A stretch of 64,000 bases of DNA, taken from the NCBI GenBank assembly GCA_019244185.1, contig JAFATB010000014.1, positions 576,001 through 640,000 on the forward strand, read 5' to 3'. The stretch is from Acidobacteriota bacterium (GTDB taxonomy: Bacteria > Acidobacteriota > Thermoanaerobaculia > Gp7-AA8). Positions 41,940 to 62,351 of this stretch are shown here, in pieces. Under the pieces are notes generated by a model. It was not told the origin of the DNA. It was given only the letters and a program-made list of their open reading frames with translations, and did not search any database. The translations under genes and the position numbers were made by a program. Each line of letters opens with the position of its first letter. Position 1 is the stretch's first letter.

Positions 41940-41941
41940 TC

Positions 41942-42741: not shown

Positions 42742-42776
42742 GCCGCGTTTTTAGCACAGTTTCGCGTTGCGCTACG

Positions 42777-43754: not shown

Positions 43755-43772
43755 GCTACACTGAAGGCAAGC

Positions 43773-44711
43773 ATGCAGGTCATCCTCCAGGGGAGTCTGC
43801 GGCACTTTCCGCCGGCAGAGCTCCTCTCGTTCCTGTCTCGCCGCGGGCAGCGCGGCACGCTCGATCTCGAGACCACCGGCCGCCGCGCGCGCATCGTCTT
43901 CGAGCGCGAAACGATCGTGGCCGCGGAGTCGAACAAGGCCAACGACGCACGTGACGCGGTGCTCGACGCGCTCTCCTGGCCCGGCGGCTCGTTCACGCTG
44001 CTCGACGATGCCGTATTGCCCGAGAACGCGGCCAAGCTCGCGCTGCCGCTCGATGCTCTTCTCGAAGAAGCGAAACGCCGCGCCGCCGCGGGCTCGGTCT
44101 ACGCCGACGCGACGAGCTTCCGCGTCATCGACGCGCCGTCGCTGCAGCAGCAGGTGAGTCTCACGGCCGAGGAGTTCAAGCTGTTGTTCCGCATCGCGAG
44201 CGGAAAGACGTTCGTCGAGCTCGTGACGGAGCTCGGCGTCCCGCGGCAGGAGCTCGCGGAGCGATTGCAGCGGCTCGAACAGATCGGACTCGTCGCCGCG
44301 ATGCGCGCGGAGCCGGGCACCGATCCGGGCGCGGAGAAGACGGCGCCGCAGGCCATGCTGCCGCGGCAGCGCACGCTCGTCGGCTCGCTCACGCCGGACG
44401 ACGCGCCCGACAGCGTGTGGCCGCTGCTCGACGCGGAGGCGACGATGGGCCGCGCGCCCGCGAATGCGATCGTCATTCAGGACGGCAGCGTGTCGTCGCG
44501 CCACGCGCGCATCGTGCGCGGCGCCGACGGCTTCTATCTCGAAGATCTGCAGAGCCGCAACGGCACGTTCGTGAACGGCGAGAAGGTCACCGAGAAGCGC
44601 CTCCTCGCCGACGGCGATCTCATTCGCCTCGGCAAGATCATCATGACGTTCAACGTCGCGCGCGAAGGGAAAGCGGGCGATACCACGCAGCCGGAGGTCC
44701 GGGTCGTGTAG
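43773..44711 (+). CDS. DUF4388 (PATAN-like) + FHA domain protein
   Basis: LQGSLRHFPPAELL N-terminus; C-terminal FHA GR...VSSRHA...DLQSRNGTFVNG. Confidence 0.85.
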   Translation: MQVILQGSLRHFPPAELLSFLSRRGQRGTLDLETTGRRARIVFERETIVAAESNKANDARDAVLDALSWPGGSFTLLDDAVLPENAAKLALPLDALLEEAKRRAAAGSVYADATSFRVIDAPSLQQQVSLTAEEFKLLFRIASGKTFVELVTELGVPRQELAERLQRLEQIGLVAAMRAEPGTDPGAEKTAPQAMLPRQRTLVGSLTPDDAPDSVWPLLDAEATMGRAPANAIVIQDGSVSSRHARIVRGADGFYLEDLQSRNGTFVNGEKVTEKRLLADGDLIRLGKIIMTFNVAREGKAGDTTQPEVRVV

Positions 44712-44727
44712 CCCGCCCGGCGCGCCG

Positions 44728-47106
44728 ATGACCTCCTACGATCTGCTCATCGTCGGCTCCGGTCCCGCCGGTCTTGCCACCGCCTCGCACGCGCGGGACA
44801 ACGGCCTCGCGTACGCGCTCCTCGAACGCACCGATCATCTCGCCGACACGATCGACAGCTATCAGGCGCGCAAGTTCGTCATGGCCGAGCCGGTGATGAT
44901 CCCCGCGCGCGGCGAGCTGCCGTTCGAGGCCGGCTCGCGCGAGTCGATCCTCGACGCGTGGCAGCGCCATGTCGCGGAGAAGCAGCTCAACGTCGTCTTC
45001 AATGCCGAGGTCAAGTCGCTCGAGAAAAAAACGAGCGGCTTCGTCGTGAAGACCGCGGCAGGCGCGGTTTACGAGGCGAAGAACGTCGTACTCGCGATGG
45101 GGACGCAGGGCAACCCGCGCAAGCTCGGCGTGTCCGGCGACAGTCTGCCGCACGTGCGCTACCGGCTCGTCGATCCGGCGGAACATCAGGATGAAGACAT
45201 CCTCGTCGTCGGCGCGGGCGACTCCGCGCTCGAGATCGCGATCGCGCTCTCCGACGAGAACCGCGTCGGCCTCGTCGTGCGCGGCTCGGAGATCACGCGC
45301 GCGAACGAGATCCTCACGCGCGAAGTGCTCTCGCGGCAGGCCGCGGGACGGATGACGGTCTGGTACAACGCGACCGTTCGCGAAGTCTTCGAAGGCTACG
45401 CCGATCTCACCGTGCGCGGCGACGTCACGCGCGTGCCCGCGGAGCTCATCTTCCTCAAGCTCGGCGCCGATCCGCCGCGTCGCTTCTTCGAGGCCGCGGG
45501 CATCCGCTACAGCGGCGACGCGAAAGACGCGCGGCCGATCCTCAGCCCCGTGCACGAGTCGAGCGTGCCGGGACTCTTCCTCATCGGCGCGGCCAGCGGC
45601 CGCGATCTCATCAAGCTCGGCATGAACCAGGGGTGGGAAGTCGTCGAGCATCTGATGGGACGCGAGGTCGAGCCGGCGGACGAAGCGGTGCTCAAGGAGC
45701 GGCTGCCGTTCTGGAGCGGCTCCGTGCGCGAGCGCATCGCCGCGATCCGCAGCCGTGTGCCGCTGCTCGCCGCCGCCGACGAACAACAGCTGCGCGACAC
45801 GTTTCTCGCCACGCGCGTGCGCGAGTATCGCGACGGCGAGACGATCATCCGCCAGAACGACTACACGAACGACTTCCTCATCATCGTCGCCGGGCGCGTC
45901 GCGCTCTTTCGCCAGCCCGAGCAGTCGCAGAGCGAGGTCCGCATCGCCGAGCTCACCGCCGGCAACTTCTTCGGCGAGATGAGCCTCATCTCCGGCCGCC
46001 GCCGCACCGCCACGGCGCGCGCGGTGGGGGAGACGCGGATGATCGAGATTCCGCGCAAGGCCATTCTCAAGATGCTCGCGTCCGCGCCGCGCGCGAAGGC
46101 GCTCGTCGACCAGGCGTTCCTCCTGCGCGCGTTCGGCGGCTATCTCTTCCCCGGCGTTCCCGAGGCGCTCCTCGGCGAGCTCGTGGACAAGGCGGTCGTG
46201 CAGACGTTCGGCAAGGACGCGCCGGTCTTCAAGCAGGGCGACCACGCCGACGCGTTCTATCTGATCCGCAACGGCATGGTGAAGATCGCCAAGAAGTCGG
46301 GCGACAAGGAAGTCGTGCTGTCGTATCTCGTCGCGGGAAACTTCTTCGGCGAGGCGGCGCTCTTCTCCGACGCGAATCGCACGGCCAGCGTCACCACGAT
46401 CTTTCCGTCCGATCTCATCAAGCTCTCGAAGCGCGACTTCGACGCGTTCCTCGCCGCGCATCCCGATCTGCGCGAGGCGCCGCTGCGCAAGCTCGAGGAG
46501 CGCCGCATCGCCGGCCTCATCGCCGAGGGGACGCCGGGCTCCGGCAACATCCTCGGCGATCTCATTCGCGAGGAAGTGGTGATGGGGACGCAGACGCTGC
46601 TCATCGACGAGCACCGCTGCATCCGCTGCAACAACTGCATCCGCGCGTGCGAAGGCGTGCACGACGACGGACAGGCGCGCCTCTCGCTGACCGGCATCAA
46701 GCTCTACAACCTCCTCGCGCCGAACTCCTGCTGGCAGTGCGAGAACCCGCTGTGCATGCTCGACTGCCCGCCCGACGCGATCGCGCGCGATCCGCGCGGC
46801 GAGGTGTACATCAAGAGCAACTGCATCGGCTGCGGCAACTGCGAGCGCAACTGCCCCTACGGCAACATCTTCATGGTGCACAAGGAGCCGTCGCGCTCCG
46901 TCTTCTCCTGGATCAAAGCTCTCTTCCGCAAAGAGGCCGAGCCAAGCGCCGAACAGACCGTCGCCGTGAAGTGCGATCTCTGCCGCGGCATCAGCGGCGG
47001 CCCCGCGTGCGTGCGCGGATGCCCGACCGGAGCGGCGATCCGGCTGACGCCGGAGCAGTATCGGGAGACGCTGGAGGAGATCGTGATCTCACGAGGCGAG
47101 CGATGA
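44728..47106 (+). CDS. FAD/NAD(P)H oxidoreductase fused to two cNMP-binding domains and a 4x[4Fe-4S] domain
   Basis: GSGPAG and VGAGDSA Rossmann motifs; FFGEMSL...RTAT and FFGEAAL...RTAS; CIRCNNCIRAC, CWQCENPLCMLDCP, CIGCGNCERNCP, KCDLC..PACVRGCP. Confidence 0.92.
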   Translation: MTSYDLLIVGSGPAGLATASHARDNGLAYALLERTDHLADTIDSYQARKFVMAEPVMIPARGELPFEAGSRESILDAWQRHVAEKQLNVVFNAEVKSLEKKTSGFVVKTAAGAVYEAKNVVLAMGTQGNPRKLGVSGDSLPHVRYRLVDPAEHQDEDILVVGAGDSALEIAIALSDENRVGLVVRGSEITRANEILTREVLSRQAAGRMTVWYNATVREVFEGYADLTVRGDVTRVPAELIFLKLGADPPRRFFEAAGIRYSGDAKDARPILSPVHESSVPGLFLIGAASGRDLIKLGMNQGWEVVEHLMGREVEPADEAVLKERLPFWSGSVRERIAAIRSRVPLLAAADEQQLRDTFLATRVREYRDGETIIRQNDYTNDFLIIVAGRVALFRQPEQSQSEVRIAELTAGNFFGEMSLISGRRRTATARAVGETRMIEIPRKAILKMLASAPRAKALVDQAFLLRAFGGYLFPGVPEALLGELVDKAVVQTFGKDAPVFKQGDHADAFYLIRNGMVKIAKKSGDKEVVLSYLVAGNFFGEAALFSDANRTASVTTIFPSDLIKLSKRDFDAFLAAHPDLREAPLRKLEERRIAGLIAEGTPGSGNILGDLIREEVVMGTQTLLIDEHRCIRCNNCIRACEGVHDDGQARLSLTGIKLYNLLAPNSCWQCENPLCMLDCPPDAIARDPRGEVYIKSNCIGCGNCERNCPYGNIFMVHKEPSRSVFSWIKALFRKEAEPSAEQTVAVKCDLCRGISGGPACVRGCPTGAAIRLTPEQYRETLEEIVISRGER

Positions 47107-47199
47107 ATGAAGAACGCAGAACGCAGAACGCAGAATTGAGAAAAGGGAGCCGGTTCTCCTTTCTTCATTCTTCGTTCTGCGTTCTGCGTTCTTCATTCA
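47104..47199. repeat. Palindromic heptamer-repeat element, copy 2
   Basis: 27-bp perfect inverted arms TGAATGAAGAACGCAGAACGCAGAACG / CGTTCTGCGTTCTGCGTTCTTCATTCA; central loop differs from copy 1. Confidence 0.9.
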
Positions 47200-47212
47200 A
47201 GCGGAGGCCAGC

Positions 47213-48046
47213 ATGGCCGTAGCGCGGTCAGGTCCCTTCTGGCGCCGCACCTTCGTCCTCCTCCTCATCGCGCTCACCGCGTCCTACATCAACTACGCGC
47301 GCCGTGAGTTTCCGCACGGCGGCTCGCGCTACGGCCTCGCCTACGGCATCGGCGGCTCCGCGCTGATTCTGCTGCTGGCGTTCTTCGGCATCCGCAAGCG
47401 CTGGTATCGCTCGCGTTTCGGGACGCTCGAGCAATGGCTGCAGTCGCACATCTACCTCGGCGTGCTCGCGCTGGTCGTGCTCGTGTTCCACACCGGGATG
47501 CGCTTTCACGATCGCATCGCCGTGACGACGTTCGTGCTCGTCGTGATCGTCGTCGTCAGCGGGATCTTCGGCGCGATTCTGTACGTGACGCTGCCGCGGA
47601 TGCTGACGGAAGTCGAGAGCAATCTCACCGTCGATGAGATCTCCGAGCAGCTCAACCAGCTCGCGCGTTCGATGGCGCGCATCGCCTCGGGGCGCTCCGC
47701 AGCGTTCCAGCGGATCTACGACGAGCTCCTGCGGCAGTCGATGCCGCGCGGACTCGCGGGCTGGCGCCTGCTGCTCTCGGTCGGCAGCGCGCGCCGCAAG
47801 CAGCAGGAGACCTCGGATTGGGCGCGGCTGCTCGGGCTCGTGCCGATCGACGAGCAGGAAGAGCTGCGGCAGATGCTCGTCGTCTCGCGGCAGCGCAAAG
47901 AGCTCCTGCTGCGGCTCGTCTATCGCCAGCGCTACAAGAACGCGCTCGAGGCGTGGCTCTACGTGCACGTGCCGTTCACCATCGCGCTCATCGTCTTCGC
48001 CGTCGTGCACGTCGCGGCGGTGTTTTATTACGGGAGGGTCTGGTGA
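47213..48046 (+). CDS. Membrane protein, probable di-haem cytochrome b (ferric-reductase-like TM)
   Basis: Two TM helices each carry a His pair 14 residues apart (HIYLGVLALVVLVFH; HVPFTIALIVFAVVH); GGAGG RBS. Confidence 0.75.
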   Translation: MAVARSGPFWRRTFVLLLIALTASYINYARREFPHGGSRYGLAYGIGGSALILLLAFFGIRKRWYRSRFGTLEQWLQSHIYLGVLALVVLVFHTGMRFHDRIAVTTFVLVVIVVVSGIFGAILYVTLPRMLTEVESNLTVDEISEQLNQLARSMARIASGRSAAFQRIYDELLRQSMPRGLAGWRLLLSVGSARRKQQETSDWARLLGLVPIDEQEELRQMLVVSRQRKELLLRLVYRQRYKNALEAWLYVHVPFTIALIVFAVVHVAAVFYYGRVW

Positions 48047-50331
48047 GCTTTCTCATCCAGCGGACGGCCGGCCGCGGATTGACGCTCACGCAGGTGCAGG
48101 CGCCGGTGCTGCGCATCGGCCGCGGCACGAATCAGGAGCTGCGCTCCGAGAACCCCGCGGTCGCGCTCGAGCACGCGGTCATCGAAGTCGACAGCGCCGG
48201 CTACGTCATCACCGACAAGGGCTCGATCACCGGCACGTACGTCAATCGCCGGCCCGTCGAGTCGGCGCGTCTCGCGAAAGGCGACGTCATCGAGATCGGC
48301 GACCTCCGCGTCGAAGTGCAGCTCGCCGATCCCGCGAAACCGCTCTTCCTCCGCGTCGTCACCACGCGCGTCGCGACGGCGGTCGTCGTGGATGATGAAG
48401 AAGAGCACGCGGCCGCCGCGGCGGTCGTGGCGCCGGGCGCGCGCGTCGTGCGCGCGAAAAAGATCGATTACGCCGGCGCGTACCGCCTCGCGCGTCCGTA
48501 TCTGACGAAGCTCTCGCTCACGGCGATCCTGCTCATCCTCGCGCTCGGCCTCATCGGCGCGCTCGCGCAGCCGGAGAACCAGCGCTTCTTCCGCCCGGGC
48601 GACGTCTCGTCCGCGCACGCGCGCGCGGCGGGCGGCATCGGCGATCGCTGCGACGCGTGTCATACGCCGTGGCGCAGCGTCGACAACAACAAGTGCAAGA
48701 GCTGTCACGCGCAGCAGGCGCACGCGACGCTCGAGAAAGATCCGCCCGCGTGCTCGACGTGTCACGCCGAGCATCGCGCGCAGATGAAGCTCGCGAACCT
48801 CCCGCAGTCGCGCTGCACGAGCTGTCACGCGAACCTGGGCGCACACGTCGTCGCCGCGCCCGCGCAGCTCGTCGCGTTCCGCGCCGCGGACGACCGCTAC
48901 GACTTCGACGACATCGCGCACATCGCCTCGTTCGACACGCACCCCGACTTCCGCTATCTGCCCGACCGCGACACGCTGCGCTTCAACCACAAGCTCCATC
49001 TCGCGCCGCGCGGCATCTTCAACGCATCGGGCCGGCGCGAGATCCTGCAATGCGTGGGCTGCCACGAGCAGATCACCGTCAAAGGCAAGACCGATCCCGC
49101 GCCGATCCGGTTCGAGAAGCACTGCCAGCGCTGCCACCGCCTCACGTTCGACGCGCGTTTCGGCGACGCGGAAGTGCCGCACGGCGGCGATCCCGGCATC
49201 GTCTACGGGTTCGTCGTCGGCATGTACACCGGCAACCGCGACCTCGCGAGCAAGTCACCCGAGGAAGTGCGGCGGATGCTCACGACGGGGCGCGCGACGT
49301 CGAACGATCCGGGGGCGGTGCTGCACGCCGAGCAGGTCATCAAGACGAAGTGCACGAAGTGCCACGACGTGCAGCGCGCGGGCGCGCGGCTCGCGGTGAC
49401 GAAGCCGGTCCTCGCGTCGGTGTGGCTCACGCGCTCGCGCTTCTCGCACGGGCCGCATCGCAACGTCGCGTGCGAGAGCTGTCATCGCGCGTCGAACAGC
49501 GTCGCCACGAGCGACGTGATCATGCCGCACCGCGACGACTGCGTCACCTGTCACGCGCAGAACGCGAAGACGATGCAGGCGGCGAGCACATGCCTGGGCT
49601 GTCACGAGTATCATCAACACACCCAGAGACCGGTTGTGACGGCATCGCTCGCCCAGGCAGGAATGGGCGGGCTCGGAAGCGGAGGGCGAATGCTGCAGGG
49701 GATCCTGCTCGCGGTGATCGTGGTGTTGCTGCTGGTCGTGCTCGTGCCGGTCGGCATCGCTCTGTTCCAGCGGTTGCGTCCGGAGCGTTCCGCGCCCGCG
49801 CCGCGCGAGCGAGCGACGCCCGCGCCGCCGCCACCGCCGGCGATGCTCGCGCGTCCCGACGGCGTGACGGACAAGGTGCCGCGCCAGAGCGCGCCGCCTC
49901 CGCCCGATCTCACGCCGCGCGCCGCGGAAGCGCCCGCGCCGCCGTCCACGGTCGTCACGCCGATCCGCGAAGACACGGTCGTCAACCTCGACGAGCCGAA
50001 AGCTTCGAGCACGGAGATGGTGCAGTGGTACGGCATGCTGAACTGCACGGGCGGCCCGCTCGAAGGACAGCGCTTCATCATCGACGAGGCGGGCTTCTAC
50101 ATCGGCCGCGATCCCGCGCTCGCGAAAGTCGTGGTGCCCGACACGCGCGTTTCGAAGCGCCATCTGCGCATCGTGCCGCGCGACGGAAAAGTGTGGGCGA
50201 TCGATCAGGGCTCGACGAACGGAACGTTCCTCACGTCGGCGCCGACGCAGCGGATCACCGAGGTGCAGTTGAAGCGCGGCGATACGCTGGTGCTCGGGGA
50301 TAACGCGGCCACGTTCATCTATCAGATATGA
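48043..50331 (+). CDS. FHA - TM - decahaem cytochrome c - TM - Pro-rich - FHA protein
   Basis: GTGA overlap start; 10 CxxCH (CDACH, CKSCH, CSTCH, CTSCH, CVGCH, CQRCH, CTKCH, CESCH, CVTCH, CLGCH); FHA motifs at both ends. Confidence 0.88.
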   Translation: MSFLIQRTAGRGLTLTQVQAPVLRIGRGTNQELRSENPAVALEHAVIEVDSAGYVITDKGSITGTYVNRRPVESARLAKGDVIEIGDLRVEVQLADPAKPLFLRVVTTRVATAVVVDDEEEHAAAAAVVAPGARVVRAKKIDYAGAYRLARPYLTKLSLTAILLILALGLIGALAQPENQRFFRPGDVSSAHARAAGGIGDRCDACHTPWRSVDNNKCKSCHAQQAHATLEKDPPACSTCHAEHRAQMKLANLPQSRCTSCHANLGAHVVAAPAQLVAFRAADDRYDFDDIAHIASFDTHPDFRYLPDRDTLRFNHKLHLAPRGIFNASGRREILQCVGCHEQITVKGKTDPAPIRFEKHCQRCHRLTFDARFGDAEVPHGGDPGIVYGFVVGMYTGNRDLASKSPEEVRRMLTTGRATSNDPGAVLHAEQVIKTKCTKCHDVQRAGARLAVTKPVLASVWLTRSRFSHGPHRNVACESCHRASNSVATSDVIMPHRDDCVTCHAQNAKTMQAASTCLGCHEYHQHTQRPVVTASLAQAGMGGLGSGGRMLQGILLAVIVVLLLVVLVPVGIALFQRLRPERSAPAPRERATPAPPPPPAMLARPDGVTDKVPRQSAPPPPDLTPRAAEAPAPPSTVVTPIREDTVVNLDEPKASSTEMVQWYGMLNCTGGPLEGQRFIIDEAGFYIGRDPALAKVVVPDTRVSKRHLRIVPRDGKVWAIDQGSTNGTFLTSAPTQRITEVQLKRGDTLVLGDNAATFIYQI

Positions 50332-52061
50332 GACGCCTCGCCGCGGCACTCCTCGTCGCCGGGGTGGCGTGGTCGGCGGAAGCGGCGCGCGTGCGTGCGG
50401 TGCGCACGGGCGGCACGCCCGCGCCGGTGCCGCAGGCGATTCCGGTCTATCCGGAGCCGGCGGGTTGCGCGGTGCCGCCGGTGTTTCCCGGCGCGACGTG
50501 CAGTGAAGGCTCCGCGGCGTTCGCGGCGTTGCGCGACAACGAAGTCGACGCCGTCGTGCGCGCCGCGGCGAAAGCGCTCGACGTGCCGATGACCATCGCC
50601 GTCGTCGACCGCGCGGGACGCGTCCTCGCGCTCGCGCACAAGGCGGGAGCGGGCAGCGCGACGGACGATGATCTCGCCGTCGGTGTTGCGCGCACGGCCG
50701 CGTTCTTCAGCCACGACATGGCGCCGCTCTCGTCGCGCACCGTGCGCTTCCTCAGCGGCGTGCACTTTCCGCCCGGCATCACGAACACGCCCAGCGCCGC
50801 GCTGTACGGCATCGAGAACACGAACCGCGGCTGCGACATGAACCTCGACTTCGTCGCGGGGCAGTGTCTGCCCACGGCGCGCAGCGTGAACGGTTTGCCG
50901 TGCGACTCGACGAACGCGTCCGGCTGCGGCCCGGGTATCGTCACCGGGAAGGTCTTCCCGAACGACGCCGATCCGTCGAGCGTGAACGCCGGAGGAATTC
51001 CGCTGTACCGCGTCGACGCGAACGGCGGCGTCGTGTCGAATGGAAAGCTCGTCGGCGCGATCGGCATCAGCGGCGTCGGCGGCGACTCGCAGCGCGCGGA
51101 GTTCGCGTCGGTCAGCGGCGCATTCGGCTCGCTCGTCACCGGCATCGCGCCCGTGCCGTTCTATCCGCTGCCCGATCCCGGCAACGTCTTCATCGACGGC
51201 GTGCGCCTGCCGTTCCTCGGCCCCGATCTGCGCCTCACGTTCGCGAACGACGGTCTGCCGAACGGCGTGCGCCGGCTCGACGGCACGAGCGCCGGCACCG
51301 ACGCGACGCTCGTCTACGCGATCGCACCGGGCTTCGGCGGCTGCGCGCCGAACGGCTATCTCGTCGCGCCGCGTGCGAGCAGCGTGTCCGCGTTGAGCGC
51401 GGTCGACGTCGACACCATCGTGCAGCGCGCGATCGCGACGGCGAAGAAAACGCGCGCGGTCATCCGCCTGCCGCTCAACAGCTACGCGCGCATGGTCATC
51501 GCCGTGGCCGATACCGACGGAACGATTCTCGCGCTGTACCGCATGCCCGACGCGACGGTCTTCTCCGTCGACGTCGCGGTGGCGAAGTCACGCAACGTCG
51601 TCTACTTCAGCCAGCACGGCATCGGCTCGTCGGTGCCTGCGGGAACCGCGGTCAGCAACCGGACGATTGCATTCGGGGGCCAGCCGACGTTCCCCTCCGG
51701 CATCGACTCTCACGTCTTCGATCCGCGCGAAGGGCCGTGGTATCAGTCGCTCTTCGTCCACGACCTCGCCAATCCCTGCTCGCAGGGCACGCAGCCGGCG
51801 AACCCGAATCAGAACGGAATCGTCTTCTTCGCCGGCTCGACGCCGCTCTATCGCGGCTCGACGCTCGTCGGCGGCCTCGGCGTCAGCGGCGACGGCATCG
51901 AGCAGGACGACTACGTCTCATACTACGGCGCCGGCGAGCTTCTCCCGCCGCAGTCGATCTGGGCCGATCAAATCGTCGTCGACGGCGTGCGCCTGCCGAT
52001 GTTCAAGTTCCCCCGTCACCCGGAAGGAGTCACCGAGTGCGGAGGGCAGCCGTGCAGCTGA
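50328..52061 (+). CDS. Secreted tandem GlcG/HbpS-like haem-binding protein
   Basis: Signal peptide; two units of IAV.D..G..LA ... P.Y....LVG..G.SG; ATGA overlap with the upstream gene. Confidence 0.82.
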   Translation: MRRLAAALLVAGVAWSAEAARVRAVRTGGTPAPVPQAIPVYPEPAGCAVPPVFPGATCSEGSAAFAALRDNEVDAVVRAAAKALDVPMTIAVVDRAGRVLALAHKAGAGSATDDDLAVGVARTAAFFSHDMAPLSSRTVRFLSGVHFPPGITNTPSAALYGIENTNRGCDMNLDFVAGQCLPTARSVNGLPCDSTNASGCGPGIVTGKVFPNDADPSSVNAGGIPLYRVDANGGVVSNGKLVGAIGISGVGGDSQRAEFASVSGAFGSLVTGIAPVPFYPLPDPGNVFIDGVRLPFLGPDLRLTFANDGLPNGVRRLDGTSAGTDATLVYAIAPGFGGCAPNGYLVAPRASSVSALSAVDVDTIVQRAIATAKKTRAVIRLPLNSYARMVIAVADTDGTILALYRMPDATVFSVDVAVAKSRNVVYFSQHGIGSSVPAGTAVSNRTIAFGGQPTFPSGIDSHVFDPREGPWYQSLFVHDLANPCSQGTQPANPNQNGIVFFAGSTPLYRGSTLVGGLGVSGDGIEQDDYVSYYGAGELLPPQSIWADQIVVDGVRLPMFKFPRHPEGVTECGGQPCS

Positions 52062-53974
52062 TCGCGGTCCTCGTCGCCACGCTCCTCGCGAACGGCGTCA
52101 TCTTCACCGACGAGATCCCCTTCACGCTCAACGGCACGACCGCGGCGGCGCCGGGCACGCGCGTCGTCGTGATGGTCGCCGGTGCGCGCGGCGAGACCGT
52201 CGTCGGCGCGGACGGCACGTGGTCGCTGCTCTGGACCGCTCCGCTGAAAACCGGGACGTATGACATCACGGTGGATGTCGGCGGAGCCGTCGAGACGCAA
52301 CTCCTGCGCGTGCAACTCCCCGGAATTCTGGCTCGCCAGCCGGGCATCGAGCCGTCCTTGCCGAAGTATGCCGAGCCGCCGCCGCCCGAGCCGTCGCTGC
52401 AGGAGATGACCGATCGCTGGCGGATCGTACCGCCGCCGTACGAGCTCGACGAGCACTCGCGCGGCCGTCTCGATCCGTACAACCAGAACGTCCTCAAGGG
52501 CGACTTTCCGATCAGCGGCAATGACACGTTCTTCGTGCTGACCGGCATCAGCGACACGCTCTCCGAAGCGCGCACGCTGCCGACGCCGAGCAACGTCAGC
52601 TCCGACCGGCCGGGGAGCTTCCGCTTCTTCGGACGCGACGCGCAGGGACTCTTCGTTCAGAACCTCATTCTCTCGGGCGATCTCTTCGAAGGCGACACCA
52701 CCTTTCAGCCGGTCAAGCAGCGCGTGAAGATGACGCTCGTCGCGAACGCGAACTACGTGCGCGTCGAAGAGAACGGCATCCTCAAACCCGACGTCCGCCG
52801 CGGCACCACGCGTGGCGACGGTCGTCTGTCGCTGCAGGAGCTCTTCTACGAGCGGCGCCTGCGCACGCTCTCGCCGAACTTCGACTTCGTCTCGTTCCGC
52901 GCCGGCATTCAGCCGTTCTCGAGCGACTTCCGCGGCTTCATCTTCTCCGACACGAACGCGGGCGTCCGCGGCTTCGGCAACCTGCGCGCGAATCGCATCC
53001 AGTACAACCTCGCGCTCTTCGACCGCCTCGAGAAAGACACGAACAGCGGCCTCAATCTGCTGAAGCGCCGCGACCAGCAGGTGCTCGTCGCGAACGTCTA
53101 CCTGCAGGACTTTTTCCGCCACGGCTACACGCAGTCGTTCTCGATCCACCACGTGCGCGACGGCGCGTCCGTCGCCTACGACCGCAACGGCGTGCTCGTG
53201 CGGCCGGCACCTGTCGGCGAAGCCAAGCCGCACGACGTCGAGGCGACCTACGTCGGCGAGGCGGGCCTCGGACACCTCGGCCGCTTCAACGTCGATCATG
53301 CCGCGTACTTTGTCTTCGGCCGCGACTCGCTCAATCCGATCGCCGGCGCCGATCCGCTGCTGCGCGGCCGCGACTCGGTGCGCATCGGCGCGGGGATGGC
53401 TGCGCTCGAAGTCTCCTACGATCACGACTGGCTGCGCCCGCGTCTCGGCTTCTTCTACGCGAGCGGCGACCGCAATCCGCGCGACCGCACCGCGCGCGGC
53501 TTTGATTCGATCTTCGACAACCCCGCGTTCGCCGGCGGCGGCTTCTCGTTCTTCAACCGCCTCGGCATCCGCTTCGCGTCGACCGGCGTCACGCTCGTCG
53601 ACCGCGGCAGCCTCCTGCCGTCGCTGCGCAGCAGCAAGGACGAAGGGCAGCCGAACTACGTCAACCCCGGCGTGCAGCTCGCGACGCTCGGTCTCGACGT
53701 CGACGTCACGCCGCGCCTCAAGGCCATCTTCACCGGCAACTACATCCGTTTCGATGCGACGGAGTCGCTCGAAGAGATTCTCTTCCAGGGCAACATCCGC
53801 AAAGACCTCGGCACCGATCTCAGCGCCGGCTTTCGCTACCGGCCGTTCCTCAGCAACAACATCGTCGTCGTCGGCGGGGCCGCGGTGCTGCTGCCCGGCC
53901 GCGGCTTCGCAGACATCTACGAGAAAAAAGACCCGCTGTACCACACGTTTGTGGACCTCATTCTTCAGTTCTGA
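52052..53974 (+). CDS. Outer-membrane beta-barrel protein (porin/alginate-export-like) with N-terminal Ig-like domain
   Basis: GGAGGG RBS and GTG 52052; amphipathic strands; ASGD...GFDSIF motif; C-terminal Phe (LILQF). Confidence 0.78.
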   Translation: MQLIAVLVATLLANGVIFTDEIPFTLNGTTAAAPGTRVVVMVAGARGETVVGADGTWSLLWTAPLKTGTYDITVDVGGAVETQLLRVQLPGILARQPGIEPSLPKYAEPPPPEPSLQEMTDRWRIVPPPYELDEHSRGRLDPYNQNVLKGDFPISGNDTFFVLTGISDTLSEARTLPTPSNVSSDRPGSFRFFGRDAQGLFVQNLILSGDLFEGDTTFQPVKQRVKMTLVANANYVRVEENGILKPDVRRGTTRGDGRLSLQELFYERRLRTLSPNFDFVSFRAGIQPFSSDFRGFIFSDTNAGVRGFGNLRANRIQYNLALFDRLEKDTNSGLNLLKRRDQQVLVANVYLQDFFRHGYTQSFSIHHVRDGASVAYDRNGVLVRPAPVGEAKPHDVEATYVGEAGLGHLGRFNVDHAAYFVFGRDSLNPIAGADPLLRGRDSVRIGAGMAALEVSYDHDWLRPRLGFFYASGDRNPRDRTARGFDSIFDNPAFAGGGFSFFNRLGIRFASTGVTLVDRGSLLPSLRSSKDEGQPNYVNPGVQLATLGLDVDVTPRLKAIFTGNYIRFDATESLEEILFQGNIRKDLGTDLSAGFRYRPFLSNNIVVVGGAAVLLPGRGFADIYEKKDPLYHTFVDLILQF

Positions 53975-56900
53975 TGCGAAAGACGCTCATCGCCACCGCG
54001 CTCGCGGCCGCCGCTGCAACGATCCTCGCGCAAGCGCGCGACACGTCGTCGCCGGCGCCGATGCCGTCGCTGCGAACGCAGACGCAGGCGCAGGCCGACG
54101 CCAAGTCCGCCGGCTGCCTCACGTGTCATCACGGCATCGAGCCGATGCACGCGTCGGCCGCGGTGCGTCTCGGCTGCACCGACTGCCACGGCGGCGACGC
54201 GAGCGCGCGCACGAAAGAGGCGGCGCACGTGCAGCCGCGCGATCCGTCGCTCTGGAAGACCTCCGCGAATCCGCCGCGCACCTACACCGCGCTTTTGCGC
54301 GAGTCGCCCGAGTTCGTGAAGTTCATCAACCCCGGCGACCTCCGCGTCTCGCACGAGACGTGCGGCGGCTGCCACGCGAAAGAAACCGCCGCGGTGCCGC
54401 GCAGCACGATGACGACGAGCGCCGTCTTCTGGGCCGCCGTCGGCTACGCGAACGGCCTGCTCGGCCAGAAGCCCGCCTTCCTCGGCGAGTCGTACAACCG
54501 CGCCGGCAATCCGCAGATCCTCCTGCCCGCGACGCCGCCCACGCCCGCGCAGATCGCGAAAGGCGCGCTCCCGCGGCTCCTGCCGCTGCCGCGCTGGGAA
54601 ATCTTCCAGCCCGGCGAATACCTGCGCGCGTTCGAACGCGGCGGCTCCGCGAACAACACCATTCCGCCGGAGATCGGCAACCCGAGCGCGAACGACGAAG
54701 CCGGCCGTCCCGACATTCGCCTCGGCAATCGCGGACGCGGCACCGGCTCGCGCATCTCGCCCGGCCTCATCAACCTGCAGAAGACGCGGCTCAACGATCC
54801 GCATCTCTCGTTTCTCGGCACCAACGATCATCCTGGCGACTACCGCTCGTCCGGCTGCAGCGCGTGTCACGTCGTCTACGCGAACGACCGCGATCCGCTG
54901 CACTCCGCGTCGTTCGCGTCCGCGGGAAACACCGGACTCTCGCAAACCGGCGACCCGACCATCCCGAAGAACGAGAAAGGTCATCCGATCCGCCACCAGT
55001 TCACGCGCGCCGTGCCGACGAGCCAGTGCATGAGCTGCCACATGCATCAGCCGAACTCCTTCGTGAACACGTACCTCGGCTACACGATGTGGGACTACGA
55101 GACCGACGCGGAGCTCTTCTGGCCGAAGGAGCAGCGCCATCCGACGGAAGCGGAGAAGCGCGCGTCGCTCGATCACAATCCCGAGGGCGCGGCCGTGCGC
55201 GGGCTGTGGACGAATGTCGATTTTCTGGAGCGCGTTTCCGAGCTGAACGCAAAGGCGAAGCAGACGCAGTTCGCCGACTATCACGGCCACGGCTGGAACT
55301 TCATGGCCGTCTACAAACGCGATCGCAAGGGGAACCTGCTCGACGCGAACGATCGTGTCGTCGATTTCAACGATCCCGCGAAGTTCAGAAAAGCCGTGCA
55401 CCTGCAGGACATCCATCTCGAGAAGGGGATGCACTGCGTCGACTGCCACTTCTCGCAGGACGAGCACGGGAACGGGCAGCTGTACGGCGAGTACGGCAAC
55501 AACATCGAGATCGAGTGCCAGGACTGCCACGGCACGACGAACGCGTACACGAACCTGCGCACGTCCGGTCCCGCGGCGCCCGCGAACGGAACCGATCTCG
55601 CGATGGGCACGACGCCGTTCGGACGCCGACGCTTCGCGTGGGTGAACGGCACACTCTTCCAGCGCTCGATGCTCGACCCGAACCTGCAGTGGGAAGTCGT
55701 GCAGGTGAAGGACACCATCACGCCGGGACATCCGCGCTACAACGCGCGCTCCGCGTACGCGAAGACCATCCGGAACAGCGCAGGCGGCGTCGCGCACAGC
55801 GACGCGAAGATGACGTGCTACGCGTGCCATACGTCGTGGATGACGTCGTGCTCCGGCTGCCATCTGCCGCAGGAGCAGAACGCGAAGAGCGAGACGCATC
55901 ACTACGAGGGCACCGAGACGCGCAACTACGCCTCGTACAACCCGCAGGTCATCCGCACGGACGCCTTCATGCTCGGCGTGAACGGCACGACGAAGGGACA
56001 TCGCCTCGCGCCGGTGCGCTCGTCGAGCGCGCTCGTCATCAGCTCGACCAATCAGCTGCGCGACCGCATCTACATCCAGCAGCCGCCGATCGCCGCGTCG
56101 GGCTACAGCAGCCAGGCCTTCAACGCGCACGTGCCGCACACCGTTCGCGCGCGAGAGACGCAGGGCTGCGGCAGCTGCCACCTCACGAAAGAGAACGACA
56201 ACAATGCGTGGCTCGCGCAGCTGCTGCTGCAGGGCACGAACTTCGTGAACTTCATCGGCCGCTACGCGTACGTCGCGACCGGCAAGGAAGGCTTCGAAGC
56301 CGTTGCGGTGACGGGGTGGGACGAGCCGCAGGCGGTCATCGGCTCGTCGCTGCAGCGCATCGTCTATCCCGACGACTACGCGCGTCACGAGCGCAATCAC
56401 CGCGAGCTCGAGGTCGCGCATCACCACGATGCCGGCGACGCGCGCTCGATCCAGCTGCGCGGCGAGTACGTCTACGTCGCCAGCGGCGCGGATGGCTTCG
56501 CGGTGTACGACGTCGCGAACGTCGACAACAAGGACTTCTCCGAGCACATCACCAGCGCGCCGGTCTCGCCGCTCGGCCAGCGCACGTACGTGAAGACGAA
56601 GTTCGCCAGCGCCGTCGCGTTGCCGACGACGATGCCGATGGATCCGACGCGCAAGACGCAGTTCATCCCCGAGAACGAAGAGCAGCCGATCCATCCGCTC
56701 TATCGCTACGCGTACATCGCCGACCGCGAAGAAGGGTTGATCCTGGTCGACGTCGACACGCTCACCGACGCGAACCCGTCAAACAACTTCCTTGCCCGCG
56801 CGCTGACGTTCAATCCGAACGGCGCGCTCGCCGGCGCGAACAGCATCGCCGTCGCCGGACGCTGGCTCTTCATCGGCGCGCGCGACGCGCTCGTCGTCGT

Positions 56901-57549
56901 CGACATCGACAAGCCGCTGGCGCCGCGCATCGTGGCGACGCTCCCCGAGGTCAAGAACGCCACCGGTATCGGCGTGCAGTTCCGCTATGCGTTCGTCACC
57001 GACGCGCGCGGGCTGCATTCGATCGACATCACCGATCCCGCGCATCCGCGTATCGCCGCGAGCGTGCCGATCGAAAACGCGCGCAGCGTCTACGTCGCGC
57101 GCACGTATGCGTACGTTGCCGCGGGCAAGCGCGGCGTCGTGATCGTCGACGTCGAGCGTCCGGAGAAGCCGTTCGTCGACCAGACCTTCAGCGATGGCAT
57201 TCACGACGCGCACGACGTGAAAGTCGCGTCGACGAACGCCAGCACGTTCGCGTACGTCGCCGACGGCGAGGAAGGGCTGAAAGTCCTGCAACTCACGTCG
57301 CCCGAATGGACGCCCGGCTACGCCGGCTTCAGCCCGCGTCCCGCGCCGCGCCTCATCGCCGTGCGGCACACGCACGGTCCGGCGCTGGCGATCTCGAAGG
57401 GACTCGACCGCGACCGCGCGGTCGACGAGAGCGGCGATCAGGTCTCGACGTTCAACCGCATCGGCGCGCGCCCGATGACCCTTCCCGAGATGCAGCGCCT
57501 CTACCTGCGGAACGGCGCGATCTACACCGTCAGTGAGGAACCGAAATGA
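53974..57549 (+). CDS. Secreted decahaem cytochrome c fused to an LVIVD-repeat beta-propeller
   Basis: 10 CxxCH (CLTCH, CTDCH, CGGCH, CSACH, CMSCH, CVDCH, CQDCH, CYACH, CSGCH, CGSCH); YAY[VI]A...GL.[IV][LV]D repeats; TGATG overlap. Confidence 0.9.
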   Translation: MRKTLIATALAAAAATILAQARDTSSPAPMPSLRTQTQAQADAKSAGCLTCHHGIEPMHASAAVRLGCTDCHGGDASARTKEAAHVQPRDPSLWKTSANPPRTYTALLRESPEFVKFINPGDLRVSHETCGGCHAKETAAVPRSTMTTSAVFWAAVGYANGLLGQKPAFLGESYNRAGNPQILLPATPPTPAQIAKGALPRLLPLPRWEIFQPGEYLRAFERGGSANNTIPPEIGNPSANDEAGRPDIRLGNRGRGTGSRISPGLINLQKTRLNDPHLSFLGTNDHPGDYRSSGCSACHVVYANDRDPLHSASFASAGNTGLSQTGDPTIPKNEKGHPIRHQFTRAVPTSQCMSCHMHQPNSFVNTYLGYTMWDYETDAELFWPKEQRHPTEAEKRASLDHNPEGAAVRGLWTNVDFLERVSELNAKAKQTQFADYHGHGWNFMAVYKRDRKGNLLDANDRVVDFNDPAKFRKAVHLQDIHLEKGMHCVDCHFSQDEHGNGQLYGEYGNNIEIECQDCHGTTNAYTNLRTSGPAAPANGTDLAMGTTPFGRRRFAWVNGTLFQRSMLDPNLQWEVVQVKDTITPGHPRYNARSAYAKTIRNSAGGVAHSDAKMTCYACHTSWMTSCSGCHLPQEQNAKSETHHYEGTETRNYASYNPQVIRTDAFMLGVNGTTKGHRLAPVRSSSALVISSTNQLRDRIYIQQPPIAASGYSSQAFNAHVPHTVRARETQGCGSCHLTKENDNNAWLAQLLLQGTNFVNFIGRYAYVATGKEGFEAVAVTGWDEPQAVIGSSLQRIVYPDDYARHERNHRELEVAHHHDAGDARSIQLRGEYVYVASGADGFAVYDVANVDNKDFSEHITSAPVSPLGQRTYVKTKFASAVALPTTMPMDPTRKTQFIPENEEQPIHPLYRYAYIADREEGLILVDVDTLTDANPSNNFLARALTFNPNGALAGANSIAVAGRWLFIGARDALVVVDIDKPLAPRIVATLPEVKNATGIGVQFRYAFVTDARGLHSIDITDPAHPRIAASVPIENARSVYVARTYAYVAAGKRGVVIVDVERPEKPFVDQTFSDGIHDAHDVKVASTNASTFAYVADGEEGLKVLQLTSPEWTPGYAGFSPRPAPRLIAVRHTHGPALAISKGLDRDRAVDESGDQVSTFNRIGARPMTLPEMQRLYLRNGAIYTVSEEPK

Positions 57550-58859
57550 AACGCGTGAGCCTCGCGATCGCACTCTGCGCTGTCGTCGCCGTCGCCGCAC
57601 AGCAGCCGCCCGCCGCGCCGCCCGCACCAGCGCCCGAAGCCGCCGCGCCGTCGTCGACGCCTGGCCACTACGCCGGCGTGGCGTCCTGCGCGAACTCCGG
57701 CTGCCACGGCTCGACCCAGCCGCTCAACGCGACGCGCGTGCTGCAGAACGAGTACTACACCTGGCTCAATCACGATCGCCACGCCGGCGCGTACAACGTC
57801 CTCTTCAACCAGCTCTCCGCGCGCATCGCGAAGAACATGCGCCTGCGCAAGCACGCGTACGAGGAAGCGCTCTGCCTCGACTGTCACACCACGAACGTTC
57901 CCGCGTCGCTCGTCGAAGGACGCGTCGACGTCGAAGACGGCATCCAGTGCGAGGTCTGTCACGGCCCGGCCAGCGGCTGGCGCGCCGAGCACACGGAAGA
58001 AGGGTGGACGCACGCGCAGAGCGTCGCGCGCGGCATGATCGATCTGCGACGCATCTCCGCGCGCGCGCAGGTCTGCACGGCCTGTCACGTCGGCAGCGCG
58101 CGCAAGGAAGTCGACCACGAGCTGATCGCGTCGGGACATCCGCAGACGCCGTTCGAGCTCGATAACTTCACCGAGGTCGAGCCGCCGCACTGGACGCCGG
58201 GCAGGGAGACGCATGGCGTGCCGGCGTGGGCGGTGGGGCAGGTGGTCGCGTTCCGCGAGTCGCTCGACAACCTCGCGCGTCATGCGCGCGGCGAGAAGTG
58301 GCCCGAGTTCTCGGACATGAGCTGCTACAACTGCCATCACGATCTCAAGGACAGCCAGTGGCGGCAGGAGCGTGGCTGGCCGGATCGGGCCGGACTGCCC
58401 GCGTGGAGTCCGCAGCGCTGGGCCGTGCTGCGCTTGCTCGTGGGACGCGTGTCGCCGTCGTCGCGCGACGCGCTCGATCCGCTCGTCGCGCAGCTCGCGC
58501 GCAACGTCTCGCGCATGAACGATTCCGCGGCCGTCGCGGCGACGGCGGAGAACGTGCGTCGCGTCGTCGAGCCGCTCGTCGGAAAAGTCGAAGCGGCGCG
58601 CTGGAACGAAGGCGACGTCCGCGCGCTCATGGCGTCCATCACCGATGATCGCGGTGTCCTTGCCGACGTGCATTCCGCGCAGCAGGCCGCGCTCGCGCTG
58701 CAGAGCCTCGCCAGCGTGCTCACGCGCCGCGATCCGCGTCTGTTGCGCGGCGCGCTCGTGAAGTCGATCGACGCGCTCTTCGACGACGTGCAGAAGCGCG
58801 ACGAGTACGAGCCCGCGCGTTTCGCGCAGAAGCTGGCGGCGGTGAAAGCCGCGCTGTAG
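57546..58859 (+). CDS. Secreted multihaem cytochrome c (c554-like; 4 CxxCH + 1 CX4CH)
   Basis: CANSGCH, CLDCH, CEVCHGPAS, CTACH, CYNCHH; signal peptide; ATGA overlap. Confidence 0.88.
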   Translation: MKRVSLAIALCAVVAVAAQQPPAAPPAPAPEAAAPSSTPGHYAGVASCANSGCHGSTQPLNATRVLQNEYYTWLNHDRHAGAYNVLFNQLSARIAKNMRLRKHAYEEALCLDCHTTNVPASLVEGRVDVEDGIQCEVCHGPASGWRAEHTEEGWTHAQSVARGMIDLRRISARAQVCTACHVGSARKEVDHELIASGHPQTPFELDNFTEVEPPHWTPGRETHGVPAWAVGQVVAFRESLDNLARHARGEKWPEFSDMSCYNCHHDLKDSQWRQERGWPDRAGLPAWSPQRWAVLRLLVGRVSPSSRDALDPLVAQLARNVSRMNDSAAVAATAENVRRVVEPLVGKVEAARWNEGDVRALMASITDDRGVLADVHSAQQAALALQSLASVLTRRDPRLLRGALVKSIDALFDDVQKRDEYEPARFAQKLAAVKAAL

Positions 58860-58924
58860 CGCGGCGTTCGCCTGCTATCATCGTCGCGGGTCAGATCCCC
58901 ACCACAATTCGAGCGGAGGTCGAG

Positions 58925-59422
58925 ATGGCGGAACCCTTCACCGGTGAAGTCCGGATGTTCGCGTTCGAGCTCGTGCCGGAAGGCTGGGCGCGCTGCGATG
59001 GACAGATCCTCCCCATCAGCCAGAACCAGGCGCTCTACAGTTTGTATGGGAAGACGTTCGGCGGCGACGGCATGCGGACCTTCGCGCTTCCCGATCTCCG
59101 CGGGCGCGTGGCCATTCATCCGGACCGCGAGCTGCCGCAGGGAAGCAGCGGCGGCGAAGCGGAGCATGTCCTCAACGCGTACGAGATGCCCGCGCACACG
59201 CACCGTCTGCGCGCCGCCAACGCGCCGCCCTCGACGAACGATCCTTCGCGCGGTGTGCTCGCGGGCGCGCCGATCTGGATCGCCGCGAAACATGGAAACG
59301 TCGAAGCTCTCGCGTCCGGCACGGTCGTTCCCGCGGGCATGCACAAGCCGCACGCGAACATGCAGCCGTATCTCACGGTCTCGTTCTGCGTCTCGCTCGT
59401 CGGGCATTACCCGAGGCGTTAG
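58925..59422 (+). CDS. Phage tail-collar domain protein, triplet 2 subunit A
   Basis: MAEPFTGEVR, LPISQNQALYSL, FALPDLRGR, HTH, NMQPYL..SFC; GGAGG RBS. Confidence 0.92.
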   Translation: MAEPFTGEVRMFAFELVPEGWARCDGQILPISQNQALYSLYGKTFGGDGMRTFALPDLRGRVAIHPDRELPQGSSGGEAEHVLNAYEMPAHTHRLRAANAPPSTNDPSRGVLAGAPIWIAAKHGNVEALASGTVVPAGMHKPHANMQPYLTVSFCVSLVGHYPRR

Positions 59423-59442
59423 AAGTTCCTCAGGAGGAAGCG

Positions 59443-59937: not shown

Positions 59938-59946
59938 GGAGGCGCC

Positions 59947-60456: not shown

Positions 60457-60515
60457 GCCGCGTCTGCTGAAACTGATGTAAACGCGGCGATGTGCTGCGC
60501 TGTCCAAAGCGCATC

Positions 60516-62349: not shown

Positions 62350-62351
62350 TC

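Follow-up and report, generated by a model that had tools for sequence, protein, structure and literature searches.

Two preprints describe gene clusters related to the one analysed here, a run of seven genes (g1 to g7, with g0 directly upstream) within a 64,000-nucleotide stretch of DNA from an Acidobacteriota bacterium (the window; positions 576001-640000 of the contig, about 68% G+C). The ptdABCDEFG cluster of marine Alphaproteobacteria UBA11136, Nitrospirales and others encodes a porin (PtdB), an oxidoreductase of the FAD/NAD(P) type (PtdC), a cytochrome called 'tetrahaem' by its CXXCH count (PtdD), a cyclic-nucleotide (cNMP)-binding protein with 4Fe-4S clusters (PtdE), a ferric-reductase-like membrane protein (PtdF) and a periplasmic decahaem cytochrome (PtdG), and the accessible part of the preprint calls its function completely unknown (bioRxiv 10.1101/2023.11.21.568154). 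In Ferrigenium straubiae, an FHA-nonahaem cytochrome is encoded together with a protein of five transmembrane segments (5-TM) and a [4Fe-4S] protein. According to the available text, the function of this trio is unknown, its expression was seen in every condition tested, and the authors, who are aware of no earlier combination of FHA and multihaem cytochrome, propose that electrons flow inward through it from Fe(II) oxidases (bioRxiv 10.64898/2026.01.22.701106). A further preprint, on peat, names an acidobacterial 'porin-scaffold-cytochrome' cluster EET1, which might overlap the present cluster; the words 'propeller', 'decaheme', 'NADH', 'FHA' and 'AlgE' do not occur in the part of its text at hand (10.64898/2026.05.27.727921). 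The first-pass annotation of the window knew of no characterised function for this gene set. This is still true, yet the preprints already describe related clusters as being of unknown function.

As far as the accessible description of ptd goes, the order and architecture of PtdE, PtdF and PtdG correspond to the C-terminal part of g1, g2 and g3, and PtdD has 4 CXXCH motifs, as does g7. The neighbor of the barrel differs: PtdA is a pentahaem protein of the NrfA COG with a beta-sandwich, whereas here the barrel adjoins the decahaem-propeller protein g6. No NrfA-like barrel partner of the ptd type is present in our cluster, where only residues 491-543 of g6 resemble NrfA/octahaem nitrite reductase (E 2e-5). 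The flavoprotein is a separate gene in ptd but fused into g1 here, and an HbpS-like gene or FHA domains are not mentioned in that part of the ptd description. The Ferrigenium trio, again compared by the description at hand, likewise places a multihaem cytochrome, anchored in the membrane and bearing a cytoplasmic FHA domain, beside a five-helix protein and a cytoplasmic 4Fe-4S protein. Its cytochrome has nine haems and one transmembrane helix as opposed to ten haems and two transmembrane segments in g3, and the text available describes no barrel, propeller or HbpS core. No redox motif was recognized by its authors in the five-helix protein, while g2 has four invariant His. Our analysis of domains, structures and neighborhoods suggests that the acidobacterial cluster combines a transmembrane redox module, regulated and independent of quinones, with an uncharacterised core of barrel and decahaem-propeller protein.

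Gene organization and conservation

As the first-pass annotation had read from the open reading frames (ORFs), the seven genes at 44728-58859 are co-directional and the last six overlap (Table 1). The overlaps amount to 4 nt for g2/g3, g3/g4 and g6/g7 and 1 nt for g5/g6. That of g4/g5 is 25 nt, or 10 nt if an alternative GTG start at 52052 is used; the database gene call for g5 agrees in length with the 645-aa ORF. Pfam, NCBIfam and PDB-sequence searches recovered the domains that the annotation had assigned, and its count of 25 c-haem motifs (ten each in g3 and g6, five in g7) is correct, with the motifs kept in homologues. Between g1 and g2 lie 106 nt. The co-directional run begins before g1, since g0 stops 16 nt upstream of it and a Kir-like K+ channel gene ends 18 nt before g0. 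The g0 gene belongs with g1-g7 in this class of cluster, and its family adjoins g1 in Thermoanaerobaculia-type loci. It is doubtful that the channel gene is part of the unit; no homologue was found in the 80 related loci examined below.

The closest database relatives of the proteins of the window carry the label Thermoanaerobaculia (phylum Acidobacteriota). Among 24 other genomes of the genus, 20 have g6, including two unpublished ones (G002 and G024), and two from the same order have it with an identity of 66%. Scanning one genome per species with a 16-sequence g5 alignment (A2) yielded at least 592 confirmed loci, of which the best 80 were examined. These carry the labels Thermoanaerobaculia, Holophagae, Blastocatellia/Pyrinomonadaceae, Terriglobia, Nitrospirae/Nitrospira, Verrucomicrobiia, Planctomycetota, Binatus and Omnitrophota. 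Homologues of g6 are present in 69 of the 80 loci, of g4 in 58, of g3 in 36, of g1/g2 in 35, of g7 in 24 and of g0 in 8. Many of these loci are incomplete, and a fully flanked subset with at least 8.5 kb on each side comprises 37. All 37 contain g6, which lies immediately downstream of g5 in 34; g4 occurs in 32, on the same strand in 9 of these and often divergent from g5; the trio g1-g2-g3 is found in 18, g7 in 16 and the complete set of seven genes in 11.

The gene-neighborhood comparison across phyla thus bears out the idea of the first-pass annotation that the genes belong to one set, as they are co-conserved in related loci, and because they recur together in other phyla the association is more than chance. 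Within the set, the counts point to a split into an inner trio, g1-g2-g3, and a core pair, g5-g6, which g4 and g7 usually accompany. The pair is present in metagenome-assembled genomes (MAGs) labelled as at least six phyla, and the order and orientation of the trio with respect to the core vary among loci.

The inner trio

The N-terminus of g1 is a Pyr_redox_3 domain (residues 7-287, Pfam E 9e-37) with a PDB-sequence match to Bdr (7a7b, E 2.7e-18). No Cys was seen on reading residues 1-320, so this would be a YpdA/TrxR-like flavoprotein without the redox disulfide and not a disulfide reductase. Two cNMP_binding domains follow (Pfam E 3e-42), whose best PDB relatives are PKG and PKA-R. An FGE...R-T-A motif, which we take to be that of the cNMP phosphate-binding cassette, is visible by eye in both, and both apparently carry intact cassettes. 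Residues 623-780 resemble HycB/HydN-type polyferredoxins, with 16 Cys forming four cluster motifs.

Distant homologues of g1 keep only the cNMP and Fe-S part (about residues 360-790). Among the 34 loci with homologues that reach the Fe-S domain, 13 have a fused TrxR-like flavoprotein, and 2 more hold cut or frameshifted copies. In 8 others a NuoG-N-terminal-like 2Fe-2S/4Fe-4S domain takes the place of the flavoprotein, and 7 of these 8 have an adjoining fused NuoE-NuoF gene that encodes thioredoxin-like 2Fe-2S, FMN-binding 51K and NADH_4Fe-4S domains. As two unrelated NAD(P)H-oxidising modules serve the same Fe-S/5-TM/decahaem trio, NAD(P)H is the probable cytoplasmic redox partner, and this module swap is the strongest argument that we have for it. 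In an acidobacterial MAG (L028, 2175-4973), the g1 homologue lies in two frames, corresponding to residues 4-248 and 263-792; this split is a frameshift or assembly error.

Of the 80 loci, 6 contain genes for CHASE2-adenylate/guanylate cyclases, and these accompany either type of input module. In the present genome the cyclase is unlinked to the cluster, as its single copy sits on another contig. Control by cyclic nucleotides and phosphothreonine had been part of the original proposal. The former is strengthened by the two conserved cNMP domains and by these cyclases; the latter goes no further than what FHA domains imply.

The second gene, g2, encodes five hydrophobic segments and an insert of about 120 aa ahead of the last one, which would lie on the cytoplasmic side. 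Topology and signal peptides were assigned for all proteins by eye plus a hydropathy script, with no dedicated predictor. In all 29 homologues, at 20-78% identity, His79, His93, His252 and His266 are invariant, while His35 and His99 are not conserved. The invariant residues form two pairs, each 14 residues apart, on TM3 and TM5, two segments that we infer to share an orientation from the alternation of the five. His79 and His252 would then face the cytoplasmic side and His93 and His266 the periplasmic side, with one bis-His haem near each membrane face. Four His, two per like-oriented helix, is the ligand pattern of dihaem cytochromes b. Sub-threshold Pfam scores point the same way: Ni_hydr_CYTB (23.3 against 30.1 bits), DUF4405 (17.7 against 26.7) and Ferric_reduct (15.4 against 28) recur below threshold in 15, 9 and 7 of the 29 homologues, respectively, and two Atlas neighbor clusters of g2 are auto-named ferric-reductase-like. 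These features make it very probable that g2 is a remote member of the dihaem cytochromes b. The membrane protein with two His pairs that the first-pass annotation treated as a cytochrome b thus bears the hallmark of this class.

A link between the first two members is indicated by Rosetta-stone fusions. In seven loci with Pyrinomonadaceae and Chloracidobacterium labels (L045, L051, L057, L065, L072, L078 and L089), a single reading frame encodes both g2 and the cNMP/Fe-S part of g1, giving a cNMP-polyferredoxin/5-TM polypeptide of about 825-885 aa in stop-to-stop length. Additional genes for multihaem cytochromes of the c7 type, having 4-9 CXXCH, lie in the neighborhoods of these fusions.

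In g3, FHA was found in two stretches (Pfam E 8e-29), together with Cytochrome_C7. Hydropathy places transmembrane segments at 157-175 and 554-572, and the 10 CXXCH motifs lie between them. From this FHA-TM-haem-TM-FHA layout it follows that both FHA domains should be cytoplasmic and the haem domain periplasmic. The CXXCH motifs are kept in 26-28 of 28 homologues, and the alignment runs through the N-terminal FHA in 17 and through the C-terminal FHA in 12 of the 28.

The outer module

A signal-peptide-like N-terminus and two HbpS-like stretches (Pfam E 8e-23) characterize g4. For g5 no Pfam family was matched, and we modeled its structure with AlphaFold2 from 75 diverse homologues (A1). The model (pLDDT 86.9, pTM 0.80) is a beta-barrel of 18-20 long strands ending in a C-terminal Phe, preceded by an N-terminal Ig-like domain and a proline-rich linker. 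Loop 476-545 is well predicted, has no regular structure and holds the most conserved motifs of the family. A Foldseek search placed AlgE (3rbh) first, with E 3.5e-16, probability 1.00 and a TM-score of 0.66 on AlgE length, followed by OccD/OprD-type channels and chitoporin; MtrB was not among the 50 matches listed. The conserved irregular loop inside the barrel suggests a plugged or selective pore, and g5 is, as modeled, probably a narrow, selective channel rather than an Mtr-type sheath. Sequence searches of g5 against Pfam Alginate_exp gave no match at E up to 0.01, so that shared ancestry with AlgE is no more than possible. The family is large: 7585 of 8000 candidates scored are matches, none of the 120 matches listed bears a functional name, and clustering at 50% leaves 1630 representatives (E up to 1e-3), 415 of them below 1e-30.

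The gene next to the barrel, g6, encodes a decahaem part (about residues 24-760, with 10 CXXCH over some 740 residues), an LVIVD beta-propeller (about 760-1145; LVIVD repeats, Pfam E 9e-24) and a conserved tail. A resemblance to Geobacter ExtM at residues 472-674 (NCBIfam NF040943, E 2.5e-22) stays far short of the family cut-off. In an alignment of 42 sequences that span several phyla, mean column identity reaches 52%, and the ten CXXCH, nine further His, many other residues and the C-terminal tail are invariant. A g6 profile gave weak matches to octahaem nitrite reductase (the 491-543 stretch mentioned above), NrfB, NrfA and the YncE propeller; the single sequence matched nothing in the PDB. 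Since haem spacing is sparse and conservation strong, the sequence suggests an enzyme rather than a wire. Complex prediction for g5 100-645 with g6 760-1191 returned scores of 0.42, 0.00 and 0.00 without controls, a result that counts neither for nor against binding. The last gene, g7, has a CX4CH and 4 CXXCH motifs, matches Pfam Cytochrome_C554 (1.4e-9) and ends in a domain without haem motifs; all five haem motifs are kept in 27 of 27 homologues. No lipobox Cys was seen by eye at the N-terminus of g6 or g7. A literature search joining multihaem cytochrome, beta-propeller, Acidobacteria and outer membrane found nothing, and one for LVIVD with multihaem proteins returned only an unrelated LVIVD protein.

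Comparison with characterized systems

In Mtr, Mto, Pio, Pcc and Ext systems a barrel gene adjoins decahaem genes, as it does here, and a stretch of g6 resembles ExtM, as noted above. With 18-20 strands in the model against the 26 of MtrB, g5 falls short of the width of a cytochrome sheath. The model for compact MtrA/DmsE-type decahaems, TIGR03508, matches only g7, at 18.9 against 192.2 bits, and neither g3 nor g6. For surface lipoproteins of the MtrC/OmcA type, Mtrc-MtrF_II-IV stays sub-threshold, with 21.7 for g3 and 28.7 for g7 against 30 bits. Pfam and NCBIfam detect no quinol dehydrogenase of the NapC/NirT or CbcL type in the cluster; g2 itself might bind quinone. Mtr and Pcc conduits are fed by such a dehydrogenase (CymA, ImcH, CbcL), whereas here the input would be NAD(P)H, Fe-S clusters and a putative cytochrome b. 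The first-pass annotation saw no resemblance to MtrA/B/C, and this extends to all four defining Mtr/Pcc features tested.

The inner trio invites two other comparisons. In NADPH oxidases (NOX) and ferric reductases (FRD), as in E. coli MsrQ-Fre, a NAD(P)H flavoprotein passes electrons to two bis-His b haems and on to the outside. Their His pairs sit on two helices, as do those of g2. The NOX/FRD domain has six helices, g2 five with a 120-aa cytoplasmic insert and scores below every family cut-off; furthermore, polyferredoxin and cNMP domains stand between flavin and haem here, and the acceptor is a multihaem cytochrome c. The Tmc and Hmc complexes of sulfate reducers connect periplasmic multihaem c, cytochrome b and cytoplasmic Fe-S proteins without quinones, in the inward direction. 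The trio follows the same logic of linking periplasmic and cytoplasmic redox pools without quinones. However, no HdrD-like CCG domain or c3-type TmcA was detected by Pfam or NCBIfam, and Tmc/Hmc do without the pyridine-nucleotide, cNMP and FHA domains that the trio has.

For the barrel itself, AlgE (3rbh), whose 18-strand barrel has loops that fold into its pore, has the fold that g5 shows in its model. Sequence identity is just 12-14%, and g5 has the additional N-terminal Ig-like domain. Among the neighboring genes, Pfam revealed none for alginate or another polysaccharide; the context is one of cytochromes.

Proposed mechanism and alternative explanations

We tentatively propose, with slightly less than an even chance of being right, that the cluster is a two-module, signal-gated system in which reducing power from the cytoplasm is sent to a dedicated redox enzyme of the outer envelope. 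Module 1 (g1-g2-g3 plus g0) would act as an NAD(P)H:cytochrome c oxidoreductase that spans the membrane and does not involve the quinone pool. NAD(P)H would reduce the FAD of the YpdA/TrxR-like domain of g1. From there electrons would pass over the four [4Fe-4S] clusters of g1 to g2, whose four invariant His would hold a stack of two b haems as the path through the membrane, and would arrive at the ten periplasmic c haems of the membrane-anchored g3. Module 2 (g4-g5-g6-g7) would be the evolutionary core, in which g3 and pentahaem g7 feed g6, the likely terminal enzyme. The g5 channel beside it would more probably carry a small or anionic substrate or product than sheathe a cytochrome, and g4 would be a periplasmic accessory of the HbpS/GlcG type. 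Binding of cAMP or cGMP to g1, together with FHA docking by g3 and g0, would switch this drain of NAD(P)H on and off. What the analysis shows are the gene order, the domains, the conserved ligands, the co-conservation, the fusions and the swapped input modules; from these we infer cofactor binding, complex formation, the outward direction, the gating and the location of g6. Chemistry and membrane potential both favor an electron flow that starts at NAD(P)H on the negative side and ends at c haems on the positive side; such a downhill flow would make tight gating sensible and explain the heavy regulatory load.

The part of this scheme that inference from sequence supports well is a putative NAD(P)H-to-periplasm route under cNMP control. 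Accordingly, the wire from pyridine nucleotide to the periplasm or cell surface that was first envisaged gains in its inner half, through the His residues of g2, the fusions and the module swap, and loses at the outer membrane and surface, where the barrel is narrow and AlgE-like and a lipoprotein signal was not seen. We consider it conceivable, though on balance unlikely, that the cluster goes further and is a counterpart, in bacteria, to the NADPH oxidase or ferric reductase of eukaryotes, assembled from separate components, switched by cyclic nucleotides, bypassing the respiratory chain and driving the extremely conserved g6 at a private outer-membrane channel for a non-respiratory job. It might, for example, make or remove reactive oxygen or nitrogen species in a regulated way, or mobilise iron or other metals by reduction at the cell surface. 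Among the loci sampled, the system is widespread in Acidobacteriota, Nitrospirota, Verrucomicrobiota and Planctomycetota.

Several observations weigh against the two-module proposal. Neither a fused NAD(P)H module nor an adjoining NuoEF gene is found in 11 of the 34 g1 loci, 3 of which have a class-I flavoprotein elsewhere in the locus. NAD(P)H coupling is therefore not universal; it may be lineage-specific, and ferredoxin could be the general partner. The g2 protein scores above no curated Pfam cut-off, and its profile has no meaningful match among PDB sequences (best E 0.16). By eye, the first FHA domain of g3 is without some of the residues that are canonical for phosphothreonine binding. 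The AlphaFold2 model of g6 has a mean pLDDT of 60 and is confident for the propeller alone; pLDDT is below 50 over most of 206-363 and 611-726 of the haem domain, and because this domain is modeled poorly no active site can be named. Foldseek returns generic 7-8-bladed propellers for the propeller part, with cytochrome cd1 nitrite reductase first at low TM. Finally, 19 of the 37 fully flanked loci are without the trio within 10 kb, and a Pirellula genome (G043) contains no g2 homologue at all. These absences imply that the g4-g6 core can use other electron sources.

The same absences are what one would expect if trio and barrel/decahaem core were two unconnected systems that happen to be neighbors in this lineage. 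In Ferrigenium, as far as the accessible text goes, a related trio lacks this core (bioRxiv 10.64898/2026.01.22.701106), and here a REP-like hairpin parts g1 from g2. We nevertheless regard this independence as very improbable. Start/stop overlaps run from g2 through g7, and the modules adjoin in varied order and orientation in loci labelled Acidobacteriota and Nitrospirota. When five trio-lacking loci were checked genome-wide, four of the five genomes had a g2 homologue, and in three of these it appears to lie just outside the stretch examined, 1-9 kb past the locus end (by contig number and coordinates, the identity of the contig being inferred); a g2 homologue also lies near the core in a Verrucomicrobiia genome. 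A redox-sensing device, in which the cytochromes report the periplasmic redox state across the membrane to FHA and cNMP domains that control other targets, would account for the unusual load of signaling domains (two cNMP, three FHA and one DUF4388), and HbpS is an accessory of a Streptomyces redox-sensing two-component system. Such a role is improbable, as Pfam and NCBIfam find no kinase, cyclase or DNA-binding output domain fused to any of the seven proteins, many g3 homologues are without FHA, and a four-cluster polyferredoxin with a NAD(P)H module that is swapped in other lineages argues for electron throughput.

Two further explanations keep the electron flow and change its direction or its end. 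If the outer module oxidised a donor in the periplasm or outside the cell (Fe(II), a nitrogen or sulfur compound or reduced humics), the trio could feed cytoplasmic Fe-S proteins and NAD(P)+. NuoEF-type modules can run in both directions in other enzymes, genomes with the label Nitrospira/Nitrospirae have the cluster (L029 and L050), and inward flow is what the available Ferrigenium text proposes for a similar trio in an Fe(II) oxidiser. Yet transfer from c haems to NAD(P)+ against the membrane potential would be strongly uphill, the cluster has no energy-coupling subunit, and TrxR/YpdA-like flavoproteins normally oxidise NAD(P)H; we therefore hold this direction to be about as improbable as the sensor. 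Less remote, but still unlikely, is a true trans-outer-membrane porin-cytochrome conduit in which g5 holds g6 or g7 and electrons reach Fe(III), Mn(IV) or humics. The near-universal adjacency of g5 and g6 fits such a conduit, as do LVIVD propellers and the NCBIfam 'choice-of-anchor B' match of g6, typical of surface proteins by family description. The highly conserved C-terminal tail of g6, which is without order in the model of the monomer, might serve for docking, and barrels of about 20 strands, smaller than MtrB, have been proposed for Geobacter Pcc complexes. Two of the preprints, in their accessible parts, take related clusters as possible porin-cytochrome complexes. Against it stand the AlgE- and OccD/OprD-like fold of g5, the irregular internal loop as its most conserved part, the missing lipoprotein signals and a haem spacing in g6 much sparser than in MtrA-type wires. 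The cluster is, moreover, common in genomes labelled Pyrinomonadaceae, Terriglobia, Nitrospira and Planctomycetota, which are mostly aerobes.

If the inner trio of the two-module proposal is indeed a NAD(P)H-driven, quinone-independent exporter, it would be a new way of powering periplasmic or surface chemistry, and second-messenger gating, if true, would be a rare case of direct signal control of an electron-transfer chain. The scheme would also give a handle on the use that abundant soil Acidobacteria make of their numerous multihaem cytochromes. Its hypotheses can be tested by mutation through the four His, the fusions of g1 and g2 and the swap of NADH modules, and the g5-g6 core, very widespread as judged from the g5 representatives, has no biochemically studied member.

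Genomic surroundings

Table 1 Features of the cluster and of its surroundings in the window.
Feature	Positions	Strand	Description	Remarks
g0	43773-44711	+	DUF4388 + FHA protein, predicted cytoplasmic	Pfam FHA 5e-21, DUF4388 3e-14
g1	44728-47106	+	YpdA/TrxR-like FAD/NAD(P)H + 2 cNMP + HycB-like 4x[4Fe-4S]	792 aa
g2	47213-48046	+	5-TM protein, putative dihaem cytochrome b	277 aa
g3	48043-50331	+	FHA, TM, decahaem, TM, FHA	762 aa, GTG start
g4	50328-52061	+	secreted tandem HbpS/GlcG-like protein (predicted)	577 aa
g5	52037-53974	+	outer-membrane Ig-like + AlgE-like beta-barrel (predicted)	645 aa
g6	53974-57549	+	secreted decahaem cytochrome + LVIVD beta-propeller (predicted)	1191 aa
g7	57546-58859	+	secreted pentahaem cytochrome, c554-like (predicted)	437 aa
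Kir-like K+ channel gene	42777-43754	+		Pfam IRK_C 1e-26, Ion_trans_2, IRK
Intergenic hairpin g1-g2	47107-47212	+	copy of dispersed REP-like palindrome
Further palindrome copy	~5346-5436		REP-like palindrome
Collar paralogue	40077-40589		phage tail collar	Pfam Collar
Collar paralogue	40635-41153		phage tail collar	Pfam Collar
Collar paralogue	58925-59422		phage tail collar	Pfam Collar
Collar paralogue	59443-59937		phage tail collar	Pfam Collar
Collar paralogue	59947-60456		phage tail collar	Pfam Collar
Giant ORF	20992-32124	+	bacterial cadherin-like + Ig (Big_9) repeats	3710 aa
Giant ORF	32213-39502	+	bacterial cadherin-like + Ig (Big_9) repeats	2429 aa
Giant ORF	9462-15755	-	DUF11/DUF7507 repeats	2096 aa
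PSCyt2-DUF1501 ORF	60492-63734		PSCyt2 (DUF1549) + DUF1501	1080 aa

The hairpin between g1 and g2 folds as RNA with -67.4 kcal/mol (z -10.7; 0 of 200 shuffles equally stable). We rejected it as an operon-specific attenuator, as it is a dispersed, genome-wide repeat: its 24-nt arm has 117 + 117 matches in the genome with up to 2 mismatches, compared with 0 for a reversed control. The palindrome is built of GAACGCA heptads, and besides the further copy in the window many more are spread across the 5.3-Mb genome, often as head-to-head pairs, with hairpins of about -67 kcal/mol. A promoter and terminator scan of 41000-60500 gave 0 promoter-like and 11 terminator-like sites, compared with 0.9 and 10.8 in shuffled sequences.

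Five paralogues of a phage tail collar protein of about 170 aa each (Pfam Collar, E 1e-24 to 1e-30) lie on both sides of the block, and the roughly 18 kb made up of a GNAT gene, the Kir channel gene and g0-g7 look as though they lie within a tandem array of these genes. The three giant repeat ORFs are probably surface adhesins. PSCyt2 and DUF1501 are usually two neighboring genes in Planctomycetota-type genomes; in this window a single ORF joins them.

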